Assembly (NCBI GenBank): GCA_965222605.1
Contig: OZ244960.1
Span: 2,720,001-2,784,000, forward strand
Source: Candidatus Latescibacterota bacterium
GTDB lineage: Bacteria; Latescibacterota; UBA2968
Direction: 5' to 3'
DNA: 64,000 bases
In this document: one piece after another, positions 314-51,538 of the stretch
Position numbering within the stretch: the stretch's first letter is position 1
Layout of the letters: the number at the start of each line of letters is the position of its first letter
Position numbers and translations under genes: made by a program
Notes under the pieces: generated by a model
The model's input: only the letters and a program-made list of their open reading frames with translations
Databases searched by the model: none
Told to the model about the DNA's origin: nothing

Positions 314-498
314 AAAACCCAAAAAGCAATATAAATCGTTCTTTGTCATTGGTATATGACACGCAATACCGCGTATTGCCACTGCGTGAGCACTATGCAA
401 AATCGGTCTTGATAAATTCGATTCTCAATATATCTTCATTGTATCTACTACCTAGAAGAGGAAAGATGTCGATCAGCTATAATCAATTGGAGACAATC

Positions 499-789
499 AT
501 GCTACCAGAAAACCGTATTCCGACGCATCCTGGGAAAATCCTTTTGGAAGAATTTCTGAAACCCTCAGGAATAACCCAGGTGGCGTTTGCCAAACACATT
601 GAAGTGCCACTTCAAAGAGTTAACGAGATCATCCGTGGCAAGCGGGGCGTAACACCTGAAACAGCCTGGTTATTTTCTCAAGCACTGGGTACAACACCTG
701 AATTATGGATGAATCTTCAACGGAATTACGATCTGGCTAAGACCCGACGACAAAAAAAGATCTCAAAACTTCAACTTGATCCGTTTTAA
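499..789 (+). CDS. higA: HigA-family antitoxin (HTH/Xre), orphan
   Basis: MLPENRIPTHPGKILLEEFLKP...RGVTPETAWLFSQALGTTPELWMNLQ signature. Confidence 0.9.
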   Translation: MLPENRIPTHPGKILLEEFLKPSGITQVAFAKHIEVPLQRVNEIIRGKRGVTPETAWLFSQALGTTPELWMNLQRNYDLAKTRRQKKISKLQLDPF

Positions 790-840
790 GGACTCGTATC
801 GCATTCTCACCAAACAGAATAGAAATAGAAAACCACACAA

Positions 841-884
841 AAAGCCCAACGGCCTCCTCTAAACCGTTGGGCTTTTCTTATTTT
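841..884 (+). terminator. Rho-independent terminator
   Basis: AAAGCCCAACGG...CCGTTGGGCTTT hairpin followed by a T-rich tract. Confidence 0.75.
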
Positions 885-980
885 GGCCTCAATGAAACAG
901 GTCAAATACGCTTGCCTATCGCCCCTGAAAATATATTTTGGGCGCGAGTCTCTTTTCAACAACGCACAGAAAGGTGCAGA

Positions 981-2519
981 ATGAAGCGTTTGTGTATCCT
1001 GCTTGTGGTCGTTGCAAGCTGTCTATGGACCTGGCTACCTCTGGCGCACGCATCACAATCCAGACCTCTCCCCGACTTTGACGGAAACGGCGTTGTGGAT
1101 CTTCCAGACTTTTTGCTATTTGTCGAACACTTCGGGACAAGTCGTGGTGATGAGACGTATGAAGACCGATTTGATCTGGATAGCGATGGCGCGATTGAAT
1201 TTTCTGATTTTCTGATCTTTGCCAGCAACTTTGGCAAAACAGTGCCCCAGACGGTGGACGCGATAATAAATTTGCCGCTACGCGCCATTCATGCTGCGGG
1301 GAATTGGGGAGATACTGGCTATGTTGTAGATAAATGGGAAGCCGCGGGGAGGGTCGGAGCACTCATACCTCTGGACTATATCGAATGGCTAAAGAGCCTG
1401 CATGTCAACTGGATCGGCCTTTCCATTGCGCTGCATTACAACGACAGCATGGATAGCACGGTCGAGCGCGTGTACTCATCAGATGTAGATATTCGCACTT
1501 TTTCAGATAAAGCACTCAGACAATTGATCCGGGAATTTAGAAATCACGGGATTGACGTATATCTGACCCTGGCATTCGAAGCCTATAAGGCTGAAACCGC
1601 CGCACGCCCGGTACGAAGGTGGCAACTCGGAGACCCGGCACCTGGCGGCGTTCCTCCTGATGATCCGAATGTCTTCGGATTGATATTGCCCCAATTCTGG
1701 CCCTGGCGTCCAGATCATCCGAATCACCGGCGTTTTGTCGCCGAGTTCTGGGCGACCTATACGCAACAGGCGGTACATTTTGCCAGAATTGCCGAGGACG
1801 AGGGGGTGCGTTTATACTCGTTGGGCACGGAGACTGACCGGCTCTTTCGCACGCGTTCAGGACGTTATATGACGAATGATTTTGGTCGAGAACTCAGATT
1901 AATGGTGGAAAGTGTGCGCGCCGTGTACAGTGGCCTGCTAACCTATGACATGCACTACGACGTACTCGTAGCATCCCACTTTTACGGACCGGGATCGGGA
2001 GCAGGTCATCTATGGGCAGATCTGGATCTCGACATCGTTGGAATCAGTGCGTGGTTTCCACTGACGGACTCGCGTCCATCAACGGTACTGAGCGTCGAAA
2101 GTTTCCAGGCGCGTTACAGGCAGATATTCCAAAACCAGCTTATTCCGCTTGCGAACACAAATCCCGACCGGCCCATTGTGTTTACCGAATACGGTGCTAT
2201 GGATGTGGTTGAAACATCCGAAAGACCAGGTGATACATCAGCGCAAAACCGGCGATTCGTATTTACCGACTCGAACCGCAATGGGCTGGATGACGGGCGA
2301 GAAACTCAGGCCAACATCTACGAGGCACTCATCAACACCATAGCTCAGTACCCCGGGATAGTAACTGGTGTCTTCTTTTGGGATAATTGGATAACCAGCG
2401 ACGAACTGTGGGCGGGATACTGGGCACGTCGCCGCAATTATGCCATCCGTCGCAAGCGGTCCGAGGAAATCGTGCGATCAGCTTATGCGTCCTATGCGGA
2501 ATCATCTCAGAGCGACTAA
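981..2519 (+). CDS. Secreted GH113-like/TIM-barrel glycoside hydrolase with N-terminal dockerin-like double EF-hand
   Basis: Signal peptide; PDFDGNGVVDLPDFLLF and DLDSDGAIEFSDFLIF; GTE and FTEYG catalytic-type motifs. Confidence 0.75.
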   Translation: MKRLCILLVVVASCLWTWLPLAHASQSRPLPDFDGNGVVDLPDFLLFVEHFGTSRGDETYEDRFDLDSDGAIEFSDFLIFASNFGKTVPQTVDAIINLPLRAIHAAGNWGDTGYVVDKWEAAGRVGALIPLDYIEWLKSLHVNWIGLSIALHYNDSMDSTVERVYSSDVDIRTFSDKALRQLIREFRNHGIDVYLTLAFEAYKAETAARPVRRWQLGDPAPGGVPPDDPNVFGLILPQFWPWRPDHPNHRRFVAEFWATYTQQAVHFARIAEDEGVRLYSLGTETDRLFRTRSGRYMTNDFGRELRLMVESVRAVYSGLLTYDMHYDVLVASHFYGPGSGAGHLWADLDLDIVGISAWFPLTDSRPSTVLSVESFQARYRQIFQNQLIPLANTNPDRPIVFTEYGAMDVVETSERPGDTSAQNRRFVFTDSNRNGLDDGRETQANIYEALINTIAQYPGIVTGVFFWDNWITSDELWAGYWARRRNYAIRRKRSEEIVRSAYASYAESSQSD

Positions 2520-47543: not shown

Positions 47544-47861
47544 TCAGGCGAGGGTTTTTTCATACAGTATTTTGCCTTCTTTAAGGACGGGATATAATAT
47601 TGTGCCCACTGTGTTTCCGAATCTTGCAACATCTTCGGGCGAGGCAACAATAATATCCTTTGGAACGTTGATGTCGTGAAGGGCTATGCCTATAGCGACG
47701 CGCTCCTTGCGTTTGGAGCCTTCGATTTTTTTAATTATTAAAAGATCAATATCGCTGTCCGGAACAGCGGTTCCCCGTGCGTGAGAACCAAAAAGAACGA
47801 TTTTTATGGGATTGAATTGTTCGATAATTCTGCGCGTCATTTCCCGAATGGCTGTTTCCAT
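47544..47861 (-). CDS. Minimal nucleotidyltransferase (MNT), orphan
   Basis: LFGSHARG..DSDIDL. Confidence 0.88.
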   Translation of the reverse strand: METAIREMTRRIIEQFNPIKIVLFGSHARGTAVPDSDIDLLIIKKIEGSKRKERVAIGIALHDINVPKDIIVASPEDVARFGNTVGTILYPVLKEGKILYEKTLA

Positions 47862-47876
47862 AATCGCATCCTTGCA

Positions 47877-48059
47877 TTAGGAGTTGGGAATGGATTTACC
47901 CAATTCGCTATAGGCTTGTATCATTTCGTTGAGTGCATCTTGTAATAGTTCTGTGCATTCCTGTATCGTCGCCCCTTCCGTCACCACTTCTGGCCAATCC
48001 AAAAGTTGCCCCATATAACCTGACGGAATTGGCGTGTAGCAAGCGTTGTATTCTATCAT
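47877..48059 (-). CDS. hicB: HicB-family antitoxin, orphan
   Basis: WPEVVTEGATIQEC..L.DAL. Confidence 0.8.
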   Translation of the reverse strand: MIEYNACYTPIPSGYMGQLLDWPEVVTEGATIQECTELLQDALNEMIQAYSELGKSIPNS

Positions 48060-48126
48060 TTTTATCGCCTGATTTGAGCCGGAGCTTTTCTTGCCCCGGC
48101 TCATTTATTTTCCCAGCAACTCCAAT

Positions 48127-48366
48127 TTAAGAAACGCGACTTTGAATATGCGGTTGAATTTCCTCATATTCCGGAAAGCGTTTCTCCTTGAGTTTGGAGA
48201 ACACCAGTTCGCCATCAACCGTAACCTCAAAGCGACCACCACCGGACGGAATCAGGGTAATAGCTTCGATATCCTGCTTAAACGCATTGACAATTTGATC
48301 CGTCATCCCGACGGATTGTTTTTCATAGCCTCATGATGCACAATATTCGATTTCTACTCGGGCCAT
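48127..48366 (-). CDS. SelW/SelT/Rdx-family selenoprotein (79 aa, UGA read as Sec)
   Basis: MARVEIEYCAS(TGA)GYEK...LIPSGGGRFEVTVDGELVFSK...RFPE; AAGGAGG RBS. Confidence 0.9.
48298..48316 (-). promoter_or_regulatory. Bacterial SECIS-like hairpin
   Basis: ATCCGTC-GGGAT-GACGGAT, 14 nt after the UGA. Confidence 0.7.
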
Positions 48367-48459: not shown

Positions 48460-49218
48460 CTAACAAACAACCTGTCTAAAAAATACACCCGTGCGTTTCG
48501 GTAAAAAAGACGCGAGATCTTCGAGATCGAGATCCACACCGAGATCTCTTGCCGCATGGCGTATGTTGTGCCAGCAATCCGCACAGTCATCGCCAGCGAG
48601 CAACCCATCAACTTGCCTCGAAAATTCTCTCGCCTCTCCGCGATCCACAGGGAAAGGATAATCAGCCGTGCGGAAAAAGTCACCAACAAAATCATAGTGC
48701 CGCCGACGTTCTCGAGAAAAATCCGCATCTTTGCGATGAACAGAAAGCCATTCCGCCGCGCGAATGAGATGATAGCCAAAATAAGCCATCGCCGGATTGG
48801 AAATCCGCGCCTTGTTGTGTTTGGGACTCGCCACATGCACACTGCGAATAACAGGCCCGGGCCAATAAATATCTTTGCGATACCGCTCCGTGCGGCGGTC
48901 ATAGCCAAAACCATCGAGTACAAAACCACTCGTCGAGCGAATGGTCAGCGCCAAACGCTTTTCTGAAAACCGATCGGGCTGGCGCGTCAGAGCCTCACGG
49001 GTAAAATCGGGAATGCCAAACAGCGCACTATACGCATAACAAAACGCGACATACGCATGTGACACGGGCAACCAGAACACATCGCCGAGACGCCGGGACA
49101 GGGCATCGTATTTCTTATCCAAAAAAAACTGCCCATCGGACAGCGCGTCACCCACACAAACGGGTTCTGTTGGAAACGCATCGACAAGCACCTGGATAAC
49201 ATCGCGTTCATTTTTCAT
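48460..49218 (-). CDS. Hypothetical protein (weak MpaB/DUF2236-like resemblance)
   Basis: 252 aa; ATGA overlap with HEPN gene. Confidence 0.6.
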   Translation of the reverse strand: MKNERDVIQVLVDAFPTEPVCVGDALSDGQFFLDKKYDALSRRLGDVFWLPVSHAYVAFCYAYSALFGIPDFTREALTRQPDRFSEKRLALTIRSTSGFVLDGFGYDRRTERYRKDIYWPGPVIRSVHVASPKHNKARISNPAMAYFGYHLIRAAEWLSVHRKDADFSRERRRHYDFVGDFFRTADYPFPVDRGEAREFSRQVDGLLAGDDCADCWHNIRHAARDLGVDLDLEDLASFLPKRTGVFFRQVVC

Positions 49219-49649
49219 ACATCATTTTCCGATTGTAAACCCTCAGAGGATGTTTCAGTTGAGGCATTATTGAGAAGCTGCTCGACATGATCATAGAGCC
49301 TTTGTGCTTTTTCTGACGCATCAGAACGGTCTAAAGGGTCATCAGTCATTTCAGCGGCATCGTATCGAAAATTAACAGCATAAGCTGTATATTCAACCAG
49401 ATCCCAAAATGACTCGACATCACATCCATTCTCTTCGAGAATCGCAAGCAATCTTGCGAGATTGTGAATGAATGGGGACTCAACGCCAATAGCGATAATC
49501 CAGGCTTTTAGTGATTTCTCTATTGCCTGTTGAACATGAAAACCAAAAATTTCATCATCAAATACAGTCGCATCATCCATGCCTTTTAATGCACGCAAAT
49601 CTCTTTCCGCCATCGAAAGCATAGCACGCGCATCATCAATCCCGTTCAT
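49215..49649 (-). CDS. HEPN domain toxin
   Basis: FHVQQAIEKSLKA, HNL, YAVNFRY. Confidence 0.88.
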   Translation of the reverse strand: MNGIDDARAMLSMAERDLRALKGMDDATVFDDEIFGFHVQQAIEKSLKAWIIAIGVESPFIHNLARLLAILEENGCDVESFWDLVEYTAYAVNFRYDAAEMTDDPLDRSDASEKAQRLYDHVEQLLNNASTETSSEGLQSENDV

Positions 49650-49971
49650 AGAGTACTCTTCCTTCTTTTAAGGCATGGGCAATGACATGGCCGGATAATT
49701 TCCCCAGTCTTTCAACCTCATCAGGGGCATAGATCAAAAAATCTTGTGAAATAGGTGTATGGGCAAATCTTATCAAGAGCCTTGCCATCTGCTTTCGGCG
49801 AGCATTTTCACCTGTAAATGGCGGGTCTTGAACGAGCAAAAAATCGAGATCGGAATCTTCATGACCCTCGCCCCGTGCTTGCGAACCAAAAAGAATAATC
49901 TGCACGGGATCGACTTCATCCACAATGGCCTTGACCATTTCTGTAAGCATATCTTCCGTAGCGACTGCCAT
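49636..49971 (-). CDS. MNT antitoxin
   Basis: LFGSQARG..DSDLDF; overlaps HEPN gene. Confidence 0.88.
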   Translation of the reverse strand: MAVATEDMLTEMVKAIVDEVDPVQIILFGSQARGEGHEDSDLDFLLVQDPPFTGENARRKQMARLLIRFAHTPISQDFLIYAPDEVERLGKLSGHVIAHALKEGRVLYERD

Positions 49972-50052
49972 TCTGTCCTCACATTTACTTGTTCTGTTTT
50001 AGTTGAGCAACTTTAAGAATCCTTTGAACCCGTGTGGTAGCTGGTTTGCCGG

Positions 50053-50499
50053 TCAATCTGGACGGTAAAGGAGGTTGTTTTTTAAATGGGTCAGAACGAT
50101 GTGCCAAAGACGATCGCAGTTTTCTTTGGATGCCTTCATTTCCCTCTCTATATCTAAATCCGTTTTTAATCGTACGTTAAGTCTCGATTTTTCAGTAGCT
50201 GACTTAAAATCGTAGTCCTTCTTACGAACAACAATATTTTTTACTCTACCCTTAATCGTAAAGATGTCTATCTGGTCATTATCGATAAAATGCGCTTCAA
50301 TAGCATAACCTAAATCAGTAGTAAAAAACCAGACACTTTGGGGCGTCCTAACGCCATCATCCATGTATTCACTTACAAACACATCCCCAATCCCCGCCGG
50401 TGATATTTGGTCGGCCACGCGATACAGTTCTTCAGTGCGGTCAAGGTAAGGACGACGCATTCCCAACGATTTGAAGTAATCCATAAAACCCTGTTTCAT
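50053..50499 (-). CDS. Hypothetical protein coupled to RelA/SpoT-like gene
   Basis: ATGA overlap, GGAGG RBS, 148 aa. Confidence 0.75.
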   Translation of the reverse strand: MKQGFMDYFKSLGMRRPYLDRTEELYRVADQISPAGIGDVFVSEYMDDGVRTPQSVWFFTTDLGYAIEAHFIDNDQIDIFTIKGRVKNIVVRKKDYDFKSATEKSRLNVRLKTDLDIEREMKASKENCDRLWHIVLTHLKNNLLYRPD

Positions 50500-51296
50500 A
50501 ATGCCTCCTCCTTGTGTTTTTCTCGAATGTCAACGATCATCCCCTCCACATAATGAATGATATGGCCCAAATAGTTGACAGCAAATTCGTCGCTTTTGTA
50601 ATTCCACTGCCACATCTCATCATCAGGGGCTGATGCTGCCTTTCTCCTATCTTCATAGTATCTGTGAAGTAGTTTTCTCAGGACTTCCTGCAACTGCGTG
50701 GATATTTGAATTTCAATAGACACATTTACAACCTCTGTATCCCAATCTTCATTAGAAATCTCGAAATCCTGACAGAGATTCAAGTGTGCTGCATAATATC
50801 CTTCCGCTCTCGCTTCATAAGAATATTCCACATTTATACCATCCTGGTCACAAAATTCACGAACTGCCTGTACAAGATACTTGACGCCATCCAGAAATTT
50901 TACAAGCACCAGACATCTGACAATATCATTGACTCTGGAGAATGATTGTTGAGGAATGTACCATCCCCCTTCTGGAGAATCAGGCCAATTCGGATTGCTT
51001 ATGATGTTTAGCCGGTATGTCTTTTCCAAAAATGATTGAAAAGGTTTGGTCAATAATTCTGGTTCTTCTTCCGGTGCCATCAGCAGGTTATAACCCGTCT
51101 CATTTACGTAGATCTGATTTAGATCCTGTAATTGAGCAGTGAATTTTTGCCAGATTTCAGATGTTTGAAAATCTTGCCGTATCTTATTGGCCACAAAATT
51201 GTAGTGATTTTCAGTTCGAGTATCAATAGACACCTGCTGGTTTTCTCTTAGCCATTTTCGATATTCCTGCATCGATTCTGGTTTCCCATTTTCCAC
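50496..51296 (-). CDS. Divergent RelA/SpoT-domain small alarmone synthetase-like protein
   Basis: KPFQSFLEK, NDIVR, GYYAAH, EIQIST. Confidence 0.75.
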   Translation of the reverse strand: MENGKPESMQEYRKWLRENQQVSIDTRTENHYNFVANKIRQDFQTSEIWQKFTAQLQDLNQIYVNETGYNLLMAPEEEPELLTKPFQSFLEKTYRLNIISNPNWPDSPEGGWYIPQQSFSRVNDIVRCLVLVKFLDGVKYLVQAVREFCDQDGINVEYSYEARAEGYYAAHLNLCQDFEISNEDWDTEVVNVSIEIQISTQLQEVLRKLLHRYYEDRRKAASAPDDEMWQWNYKSDEFAVNYLGHIIHYVEGMIVDIREKHKEEAL

Positions 51297-51538
51297 AAAA
51301 TCCCCTTTTTTTGAATATCGCGGTCAATTTCTGCACGGTACGCCTCGTAACAAAAGCATACTCAGAATTGCATATTCTTTCAAGTGCTTTTCTGAGTATG
51401 CTCTCAAATTTCCGGCTTTTGAGACCAGATACGCGACGGATACCTGAAGAACGGTATTTGCGCTTGACGGGTGCATGGAAGGCACTTAGATTTTGCCGTA
51501 TCGTGCATCGCATTGAAAAACCATCACCAGGAGCAAAA

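Follow-up and report, generated by a model that had tools for sequence, protein, structure and literature searches.

Enzymes of the small alarmone synthetase (SAS) type are known as toxins and as anti-phage effectors, and cultured Firmicutes, Actinobacteria and Proteobacteria are the main source of the SAS subfamilies and partners described so far. The present work deals with a two-gene cassette of Candidatus Latescibacterota bacterium (assembly GCA_965222605.1, contig OZ244960.1), carried on a stretch of 64,000 nucleotides (positions 2,720,001 to 2,784,000 of the forward strand) that is called here the window and to whose numbering the coordinates of the cassette refer. Gene A (50496..51296, minus strand) is an open reading frame (ORF) of 266 codons with a GTG start, whose product is a divergent nucleotidyltransferase or pyrophosphokinase-like protein of predicted SAS fold; gene B (50053..50499, minus strand) encodes 148 residues, modelled as two N-terminal helices, a seven-stranded barrel resembling pleckstrin-homology (PH) domains and a C-terminal helix. 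A preliminary description, made from the sequence alone, had seen in this pair a candidate toxic SAS (toxSAS) or anti-phage module. By analogy with the described systems, the A-B pair would work most like a toxSAS operon, with a PH-like partner fold that is not described for the toxSAS class in the texts searched.

Like the A-B pair, the toxSAS systems (FaRel2/ATfaRel2, PhRel, PhRel2, FaRel and the fused CapRel) combine an enzyme of SAS fold with a conserved, often overlapping and patchily distributed two-gene operon. They differ from it in that their partners are pseudo-Zn-finger proteins (ATfaRel2, pZFD), PAD1-Panacea proteins or SAH hydrolases, whereas B is PH-like; their adenine-stacking arginines, given in PMC11782079 as the target of the YxxY neutralisation motif, are absent from A; and the A-B pair has no copies in the viral and phage collections searched. 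The PANGU type I system, as outlined in its bioRxiv preprint (10.64898/2026.04.06.716658), is likewise a bicistronic association of an SAS-fold effector (the toxSAS Pag1B/GRel) with a non-enzymatic partner (the sensor Pag1A), but there the partner is a DNA-clamping nucleoid-associated protein instead of a 148-residue PH-like protein, and Pag1B ends in a DNA-mimic domain of which A has no equivalent. An assignment of the A-B pair to PANGU type I was considered and ruled out, neither a nucleoid-associated protein nor a DNA-mimic domain being present. The type VII MNT-HEPN (MntA-HepT) modules, an example of which adjoins the pair, share with it an upstream nucleotidyltransferase (NTase) of the Pol-beta superfamily, a small downstream partner and overlapping frames. 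The fold of A is nevertheless SAS and not minimal MNT, B is PH-like and not a HEPN RNase, and a modification of B by A is only a proposed rival explanation, weighed below.

With the RelQ/SAS1 and RelP/SAS2 enzymes (B. subtilis YjbM/YwaC and S. aureus RelP; 5ded, 6ewz, 6fgk), A has the same fold over almost the whole SAS chain and shares the K-x3-S-x3-K-x2-R motif, the catalytic Asp, the Gly-Tyr...His of the G-loop, E-x-Q...T and the His of the following helix. It is set apart from these enzymes by a score below the Pfam cut-off, the replacement of three arginines, the change of a Gly into an invariant Arg and an insertion of 13 residues, and A alone has an N-terminal helical region, a WQW...YLGHxxHYxEG segment, a near-constant partner gene and a spread in both archaea and bacteria. 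Literature searches on small alarmone synthetase, toxSAS, archaea and pleckstrin retrieved no description of the A-B pair, searches linking DUF262 to RelA SpoT or alarmone, or on PDC-S33, retrieved nothing, and neither 'pleckstrin' nor 'PH domain' occurs in the main text of NetFlax.

The synthetase-like protein and its PH-like partner

Judging from their relatives, genes A and B are real genes and not chance ORFs, because 899 clusters of gene A relatives (at E ≤ 1e-3, nearly all of 260-270 residues, in bacteria and archaea) and 1234 cluster representatives of gene B were recovered. Curated profiles recognise A poorly. Its score against Pfam RelA_SpoT (PF04607) is 18.3 bits (E 0.003), below the gathering cut-off of 27 bits, and only 10 of the 59 sequences of the broader family profile A3, to which all residue counts below refer, match PF04607 at E ≤ 0.01 (best 9.1e-6). 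NCBIfam gave nothing relevant for A, and no known or candidate system of PADLOC-DB 2.0 matches the A-B pair beyond a weak similarity of A to PDC-S33, its sole match (E 2.6e-4 over 88 residues). The same scan of A and B from two other loci (L004, L025) and of gene A from three more (L060, L061, L073) gave no match, or a single weak one (PDC-S13 for the L025 gene A, E 4.1e-4). Precomputed Pfam domains were absent from all 120 relatives of A among the matches listed, and just two JGI records among the relatives listed carry the label RelA/SpoT-type nucleotidyltransferase.

Against the PDB, the A3 profile retrieved five SAS chains, the best being B. subtilis YwaC/SAS2 (E 1.4e-6, profile positions 53-220); a profile made from close relatives only (A1) found no RelA/SpoT homologue (RSH), and the single sequence of A had CapRel as its best match (E 0.007). 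The AlphaFold model of A (pLDDT 92.0) was matched by Foldseek to RelP (6ewz_A, E 7.8e-10) and by VIA-align to RelQ (5ded_C, Z 15.6, 188 of 194 residues aligned, root-mean-square deviation 3.1), with lower values for CapRel (Z 10.7), an exported SAS (10.2), Tas1 (9.6), the synthetase domains of long Rel/RelA/SpoT proteins (7-10) and FaRel2 (7.1). A consists of a single SAS-fold domain within its 266 residues, with an N-terminal helical region additional to RelQ/RelP, and no HD hydrolase domain was found in profile and model comparisons. The RSH-type synthetase without HD domain that had been proposed is in this way supported by the profile, Foldseek and VIA-align; of the link to the RelA_SpoT model itself, the Pfam threshold was missed but the relation to SAS2 was reached with the family profile. 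From profiles and model, A appears to be related to the small alarmone synthetases but to have diverged strongly from them, with the RSH SYNTH fold, and would form a divergent clade of that fold outside the named subfamilies, the 30 SAS subfamilies of Jimmy et al. (2020) being taken as they are given in the main text of that article.

The active site was mapped by HMMER alignments to YwaC and CapRel, and the roles of the residues were taken from FaRel2 as described in PMC11782079, where K66, S70, K74 and R77 bind the triphosphate, D90 the Mg ion, Y128 is the G-loop tyrosine, E145 and Q147 contact the adenine and R64 and R95 stack on it. The putative triphosphate-binding motif of A, K84-x3-S88-x3-K92-x2-R95 (51012..51047; this motif and those that follow lie on the minus strand), is aligned with RVKSFESIVNKLMRK of YwaC in the HMMER alignment to the family profile and corresponds with identical spacing to K66, S70, K74 and R77 of FaRel2; K84 is present in 59 of 59 sequences and S88, K92 and R95 in 58 each. 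By the alignments to YwaC and CapRel, the catalytic D124-I-V-R127 (50916..50927) is the counterpart of D-x-x-G-x-R, with D124, equivalent to the conserved D90, and R127 both found in all 59 sequences. The G-loop G166-Y167-Y-A-A-H171 (50784..50801) is aligned with GYRSLH of YwaC and is the counterpart of GYxSxH, which contains the tyrosine stacking on the acceptor base; G166 and H171 are invariant, and Y167 (58/59) corresponds to the conserved Y128 of FaRel2. Finally, E195-I-Q197-I-S199-T200 (50697..50714), the counterpart of EIQIRT, keeps E195 and Q197 in 59 of 59 sequences, as equivalents of E145 and Q147, and T200 in 58. The order KxxxSxxxK, DIVR, GYxxxH, EIQI noticed in the preliminary description is thus complete, and it is conserved family-wide.

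Three canonical arginines are lost around this conserved core. Two residues before K84, the position of the canonical Arg and of the adenine-stacking R64 of FaRel2 is occupied by Leu82, and by L, V, Y, E or I in the family, R not being among the five commonest residues in the 59 sequences. The Gly of DxxGxR (G93 of FaRel2) is replaced by Arg127 in all 59, while its canonical Arg, corresponding to the adenine-stacking R95, is Leu129 in A, with R in only 10 of 59. At position 199, the Arg of ExQxRT in canonical enzymes and a Ser in A, the family has T in 54 sequences, S in 3 and I in 2. Both peculiarities remarked on before, the lack of an Arg ahead of the first Lys and EIQIST in place of EIQIRT, therefore concern the whole family. 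Two other elements are particular to it. Between the basic helix and the catalytic strand lies an insertion, N101...W104-P105...P108...W112 (50961..50996), which YwaC lacks, its alignment to the family profile showing a gap of 13 columns there, and whose residues are strongly conserved (N101 and P108 59/59, W112 58/59, P105 57/59, W104 45/59 with F in 12). The C-terminal segment, with the conserved pattern WQW...YLGHxxHYxEG, has invariant W229-x-W231, F238, Y242, H248, E251 and R258. Because the catalytic residues are kept and the arginines replaced, A is probably an active enzyme under strong selection, with a rebuilt pocket for the nucleotide base. With the three arginines gone, the donor may not be ATP, or A may be no pyrophosphokinase at all. 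The altered substrate suggested earlier is plausible on the grounds that the residues aligned with the adenine-stacking arginines are not Arg.

Gene B has no match in Pfam, NCBIfam or PADLOC, and none of 51 members of its family matches Pfam at E ≤ 0.01. The family profile collects 1234 representatives at 50% clustering, nearly all stand-alone proteins of about 145 residues with a few longer forms; when longer, fused forms were looked for in a word index, none came up, though this counts for little. Among the rare fused forms of the family, one of 240 residues (P0129) has an N-terminal PRiA4_ORF3 domain (E 9.2e-48), and another of 254 residues (P0270) an N-terminal carboxypeptidase-regulatory-like domain (E 5.2e-13). 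The model of B (pLDDT 95.4) contains, according to DSSP, strands 37-47, 50-60, 65-70, 77-81, 86-94, 106-113 and 118-124 and a helix at 127-142. Two independent structure searches list PH domains throughout their first 50 places (Z 6.3-8.8), the best matches being the PH domain of USP37 (3u12_B, Z 8.8) and the bacterial PH-like (PHb) proteins 3b77_A (Z 8.3) and 3hsa_A (Z 7.7), and the best Foldseek match is 4tyz_A (E 3.7e-4). With the PHb domains (PMC2817789), the barrel and the C-terminal helix can be aligned, whereas B has no Pfam sequence match and possesses two additional N-terminal helices. The model assigns to B a confident PH-like fold, and the moderate Z values are taken as a resemblance of fold with no claim of kinship. 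Invariant residues are few (Y8, S105, C128), and F59, A123, N127 and L131 are near-invariant. The beta-rich 148-residue partner had been supposed to be of a new type, with which the lack of a match to described families and the PH-like model are in agreement. An assignment to DUF3908 (PF13048), carried by 52% of the members of one cluster in the ESM Atlas, was rejected on the strength of the Pfam comparison of the 51 sequences.

Pairing, partner exchange and spread of the cassette

Association of the two genes was followed from both sides, in 80 gene-A-centred loci from species-representative genomes and in 80 metagenome loci found with gene B. Around gene A, an intact B lies directly downstream on the same strand in 62 of the 80 loci, a partial B in 3 and another partner in 10; B is absent in 2, and 3 have too little downstream DNA. 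The B profile matches 67 of the 80 loci as well as the window, each time directly downstream of A. Conversely, gene A is directly upstream in 75 of the 80 gene-B-centred loci, and of the 54 with enough upstream DNA, 49 have it intact, 4 have only part of it and 1 lacks it. In the window, the ATG of B (50499-50497) and the TGA of A (50498-50496) form an ATGA overlap (50496..50499, minus strand), which suggests translational coupling; a Shine-Dalgarno-like AGGAGGAGG (50504..50512, minus strand) precedes B within the 3' end of A, and AAGGGGA (51301..51307, minus strand) stands 4 nt before the GTG of A, a start that fits the N-termini of the homologues in the alignment. Among 60 pairs delimited by their longest ORFs, 36 have such an overlap of 4 nt, so that the often-overlapping bicistronic operon of the toxSAS type is found here in both pairing counts and overlaps. 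The pairwise distances of A and B are correlated (r 0.80, a value reached in 0 of 2000 permutations), and A is the more conserved of the two (mean pairwise identity 46% vs 32% for B). No conservation between loci was seen in the flanking genes beyond the pair. The A-B pair is close to obligate, and the sequences point to a cassette whose two genes are coupled in translation and transferred horizontally together. Prediction of the A and B complex from alignments A3 and A2 gave a score of 0.00, which is no verdict and counts neither for nor against binding.

Several loci retain only one intact gene. In L156, an ORF resembling Mutator-family transposases (448-1605, minus strand) occupies the place of gene A, of which only the last 37 profile positions are left, and B is intact beside it (1823-2260, plus strand). 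An intact B also accompanies a gene A with an in-frame stop (L152) or a 5' truncation (L118), or no gene A (L141). In a Mycobacterium metagenome-assembled genome (MAG; L068:2799-5832), a solo gene A is located between two ROK-family paralogues, the downstream one overlapping A by 4 nt.

In ten loci (L057, L060, L061, L063, L064, L066, L071, L073, L075 and L078), B is replaced by a DUF262/GmrSD_N protein. Nine of these ten are in the gene A tree, where they form one clade (SH-aLRT 99), with hosts that include Nostoc, Pseudomonas, Rheinheimera and Myxococcota. The DUF262 partners have about 220 or about 535 residues, overlap gene A slightly and match GmrSD_N with E values down to 2.4e-31. The long ones match, over their full length, the PADLOC defence-candidate model PDC-M55C (E 2.5e-69 and 2.1e-74) and the HEC-05, NsnA and SspE models more weakly, and their C-terminal half has no Pfam match; gene A of this clade (L060, L061, L073) has no PADLOC match. 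Such an exchange of partner, and the link to a nucleotide-binding domain of defence type, would fit a conflict system.

The maximum-likelihood tree of 70 full-length A sequences, from which split and truncated copies were left out, interleaves archaea and bacteria, Heimdallarchaeota standing for example beside Neomarinimicrobiota, and points to transfer of the A-B pair between domains. The distribution is patchy: of 40 relatives that were searched, 3 have a match to gene A, all in the same genus, namely two full-length copies and a fragment of 66 profile positions. This fragment, in a congeneric genome (G006:C228:38493-38690, locus L086, profile positions 4-69, E 1.1e-14), is apparently what is left of a former cassette. 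The closest copies in databases, with 93% identity, are at the same chromosomal site in two Latescibacteria MAGs (L001, L002). Gene A is single-copy in its own genome, which also contains a long RSH in an open frame of 730 residues (PF04607, E 9.6e-42). A second RelA_SpoT-domain protein lies there in an open frame of 553 residues (G000:C1:1869231-1869524, locus L082, E 3.2e-21). Given these two proteins and the patchiness of A among relatives, A is not the housekeeping enzyme. In PHROGs, A has only a weak match (phrog_4773, E 5e-4) and B has none. Contigs from the metatranscriptomes of two studies, about 93% identical, bridge the A/B junction (X19, 50262-51191; X20, 50257-50994) and leave parts of the stretch uncovered; they are weakly compatible with expression of a close relative, since DNA carry-over is possible and a contig is not a transcript.

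Among the 142 ORFs immediately flanking the loci, 58 have any Pfam match, and 14 of these 58 are, in our own classification, PIN, ParE, BrnA, DUF433, HNH, PLD-nuclease, Uma2, AAA_15/21, integrase or transposase ORFs, a raw count given without a baseline. Aminoacyl-tRNA synthetase genes or domains account for 6 of the same 142 (L015, L017, L020, L030, L034, L035), of the kinds class Ic Glu/Gln, PheRS alpha (twice), HGTP anticodon domain, class II Asp/Lys/Asn and SerRS; these loci are partly related and amount to about four independent cases, which may reflect chance or a preference of insertion site.

Surroundings of the cassette in the window

The pair lies in an AT-richer islet (50000-51300), where the GC content is down to 0.39-0.43 from the value of about 0.52 that the flanks show beyond 51500, so that the AT-rich two-gene unit with its overlap was found as first described. 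The MNT-HEPN/HicB/MNT cluster reported next to it was also recovered by the Pfam scan, all four genes being downstream of the pair: an MNT (49636-49971, minus strand, NTP_transf_2, E 1.3e-9), a HEPN (49215-49649, minus strand, E 8.5e-15), a HicB/UPF0150-like gene (47877-48104, with an E of 2.2e-5 that does not reach the Pfam cut-off) and another MNT (47544-47861, Polbeta, E 1.2e-12). Scans for promoter patterns (8 found, 5.1 expected from shuffled background) and terminator patterns (2 found, 2.0 expected) did not rise above background.

Two other ORFs of this region may be mentioned. An unannotated ORF of 252 codons (48460-49218, minus strand) is joined to HEPN and MNT by overlaps of 4 nt and 14 nt (the latter between MNT and HEPN), and the arrangement suggests a three-gene operon (48460-49971). 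Its GC content (0.52-0.53) is above that of its neighbours, and it has no significant match in Pfam or PADLOC, and one in NCBIfam only at E 0.022. A 59-residue Rdx/SelW-like ORF (48127-48366, minus strand; PF10262, E 2.9e-14) covers only profile positions 20-73, and its frame continues upstream across an in-frame TGA. With this TGA read as selenocysteine, the product begins MARVEIEYCASU... and contains a CxxU redox motif. The short ORF is thus probably a miscall of a gene for a selenoprotein W-like protein.

Possible modes of action

We favour, at somewhat less than an even chance, the view that the A-B pair is a toxSAS-like module in which A is an effector held in check by the new partner B, acting as neutraliser or sensor. 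The main precedent for it comes from five SAS subfamilies in which, according to PMC7229694, toxicity was predicted from a conserved bicistronic operon with overlapping genes. In the scheme that we propose, A would be a catalytically competent, growth-arresting effector, in which K84/S88/K92/R95 and D124 would hold an Mg-nucleoside triphosphate while Tyr167 would stack on the acceptor, whose 3'-OH would receive the pyrophosphate. Purine nucleotides and the CCA end of tRNA are both conceivable acceptors, with the outcome that nucleotide pools would be depleted or translation blocked. PH-like B would be the cognate neutraliser and possibly a sensor, silencing A up to the moment when an event such as phage infection removes or displaces B. 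The enzymatic activity, the identity of donor and acceptor, the toxicity, the neutralisation by B and any role in defence are elements that we infer. The presence in the gene A family of the catalytic and triphosphate-binding RSH residues (K, S, K, R; Asp; Gly-Tyr; ExQ) is consistent with such an enzyme.

Several observations weigh against this toxSAS-like scheme. All three canonical RSH arginines (RxK, DxxGxR, ExQxRT) are replaced in the family. With a pI of 4.75 and a net charge of about -18 (median pI in the family 5.96), A is an acidic protein, which naively is not expected of a tRNA binder. MNT-HEPN modules too have the NTase ahead of a small partner in overlapping frames, and there the NTase is the antitoxin. 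According to the PANGU preprint, the SAS of a bicistronic operon (Pag1B/GRel) can be an inert oligomer that needs its partner for activation. In two Actinomycetota (L059, L068), gene A has all of the invariant catalytic residues and neither B nor DUF262 beside it, a situation that counts against a toxin because a potent one is not expected alone. As to gene decay, about 9 loci have a broken A with an intact B, about 2 a damaged B with an intact A, plus 2 with B absent, and these counts match the ratio of gene lengths and so give no indication of which gene is the toxin. Lastly, searches of IMG/VR viral contigs (118 pattern matches, none of them confirmed), PLSDB plasmids and INPHARED phage genomes yielded no copy of the pair.

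In a rival explanation, the partner is an activator or sensor. A would then be inert alone, for instance as a RelQ-like oligomer, B or DUF262 would sense a cue of infection, A would make an alarmone-type nucleotide aborting the infection, and there would be no classical toxin-antitoxin pair. Such an arrangement is known from PANGU type I, where, according to the preprint, the toxSAS GRel is activated by a non-enzymatic partner and neither gene is toxic alone. It would agree with the closeness of the A model to tetrameric RelQ/RelP (Z 15.6, against 7-10.7 for toxSAS structures), with the solo copies of A with intact catalytic residues tolerated in two genomes and with DUF262/GmrSD_N as a nucleotide-binding family of defence proteins (the PDC-M55C, HEC-05 and SspE matches). 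We nonetheless hold it to be unlikely: B is no nucleoid-associated protein and is poor in conserved polar or basic residues, with Y8, S105 and C128 invariant, A has no additional C-terminal domain comparable to the DMK of Pag1B, and no trigger is known. The gene order has also to be considered from the opposite side, since with its overlap it mimics MNT-HEPN, in which an upstream Pol-beta-superfamily NTase modifies the downstream toxin (in part PMC7641770). In an enzyme-antitoxin pair of this type VII-like kind, or an enzyme-substrate pair, the effector would be the partner, B or DUF262, and A would control it by covalent modification, in B for example at Tyr8 or Ser105. The invariant Tyr, Ser and Cys of B would offer targets, the loss of nucleotide-acceptor-type arginines could reflect a protein acceptor, and the DUF262 partners resemble effector components of defence candidates. 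This is improbable on balance, as the 148-residue PH-like B shows no evident catalytic or membrane-disrupting feature and is found intact beside a disrupted or missing A (L156, L152, L118, L141), which is unexpected for a toxin in need of A.

To our knowledge, no enzyme of SAS fold modifies proteins, and this also counts against modification of the partner. A role outside conflict, in which A would be an accessory alarmone synthetase for stress signalling, with B as its small regulatory subunit, acquired horizontally and used in physiology, would be in agreement with the housekeeping-type RelQ/RelP as closest structural match, the strong purifying selection on A (46% mean pairwise identity across domains), the entirely chromosomal occurrence, as judged from the viral, plasmid and phage searches, the ordinary metabolic genes among many neighbours and the site shared by the two related Latescibacteria MAGs (L001, L002). 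It accords less well with a very patchy occurrence (3 of 40 relatives), flanks that are not conserved beyond the pair, archaea and bacteria interleaved in the gene A tree, an AT-rich islet with toxin-antitoxin genes, the swap to a defence-type DUF262 partner and the loss of the canonical arginines, and we regard it as quite unlikely. Since three arginines are lost and Arg127, a Trp/Pro-rich insertion and a His/Glu-rich C-terminal segment gained, a further possibility, unlikely as it stands, is that A is no pyrophosphokinase of the ATP:(p)ppGpp, (p)ppApp or tRNA kind. It would use another donor or acceptor and yield an undescribed phosphorylated nucleotide signal read by the PH-like B or by DUF262, in a new defence or regulatory system of archaea and bacteria.

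Whichever of these modes applies, the cassette represents a large clade missed by curated profiles, with at least 899 gene A clusters and 1234 gene B representatives. It appears to have crossed the boundary between archaea and bacteria repeatedly, and it combines a rebuilt nucleotide site with a partner fold unreported for this class of enzymes in the texts searched. If A is toxic and B neutralises it, as in the toxSAS-like reading, archaea would share in a widespread toxin-antitoxin system of SAS type that is controlled in a new way; in the case where B or DUF262 reads the product of A, it would point to a new nucleotide signal.

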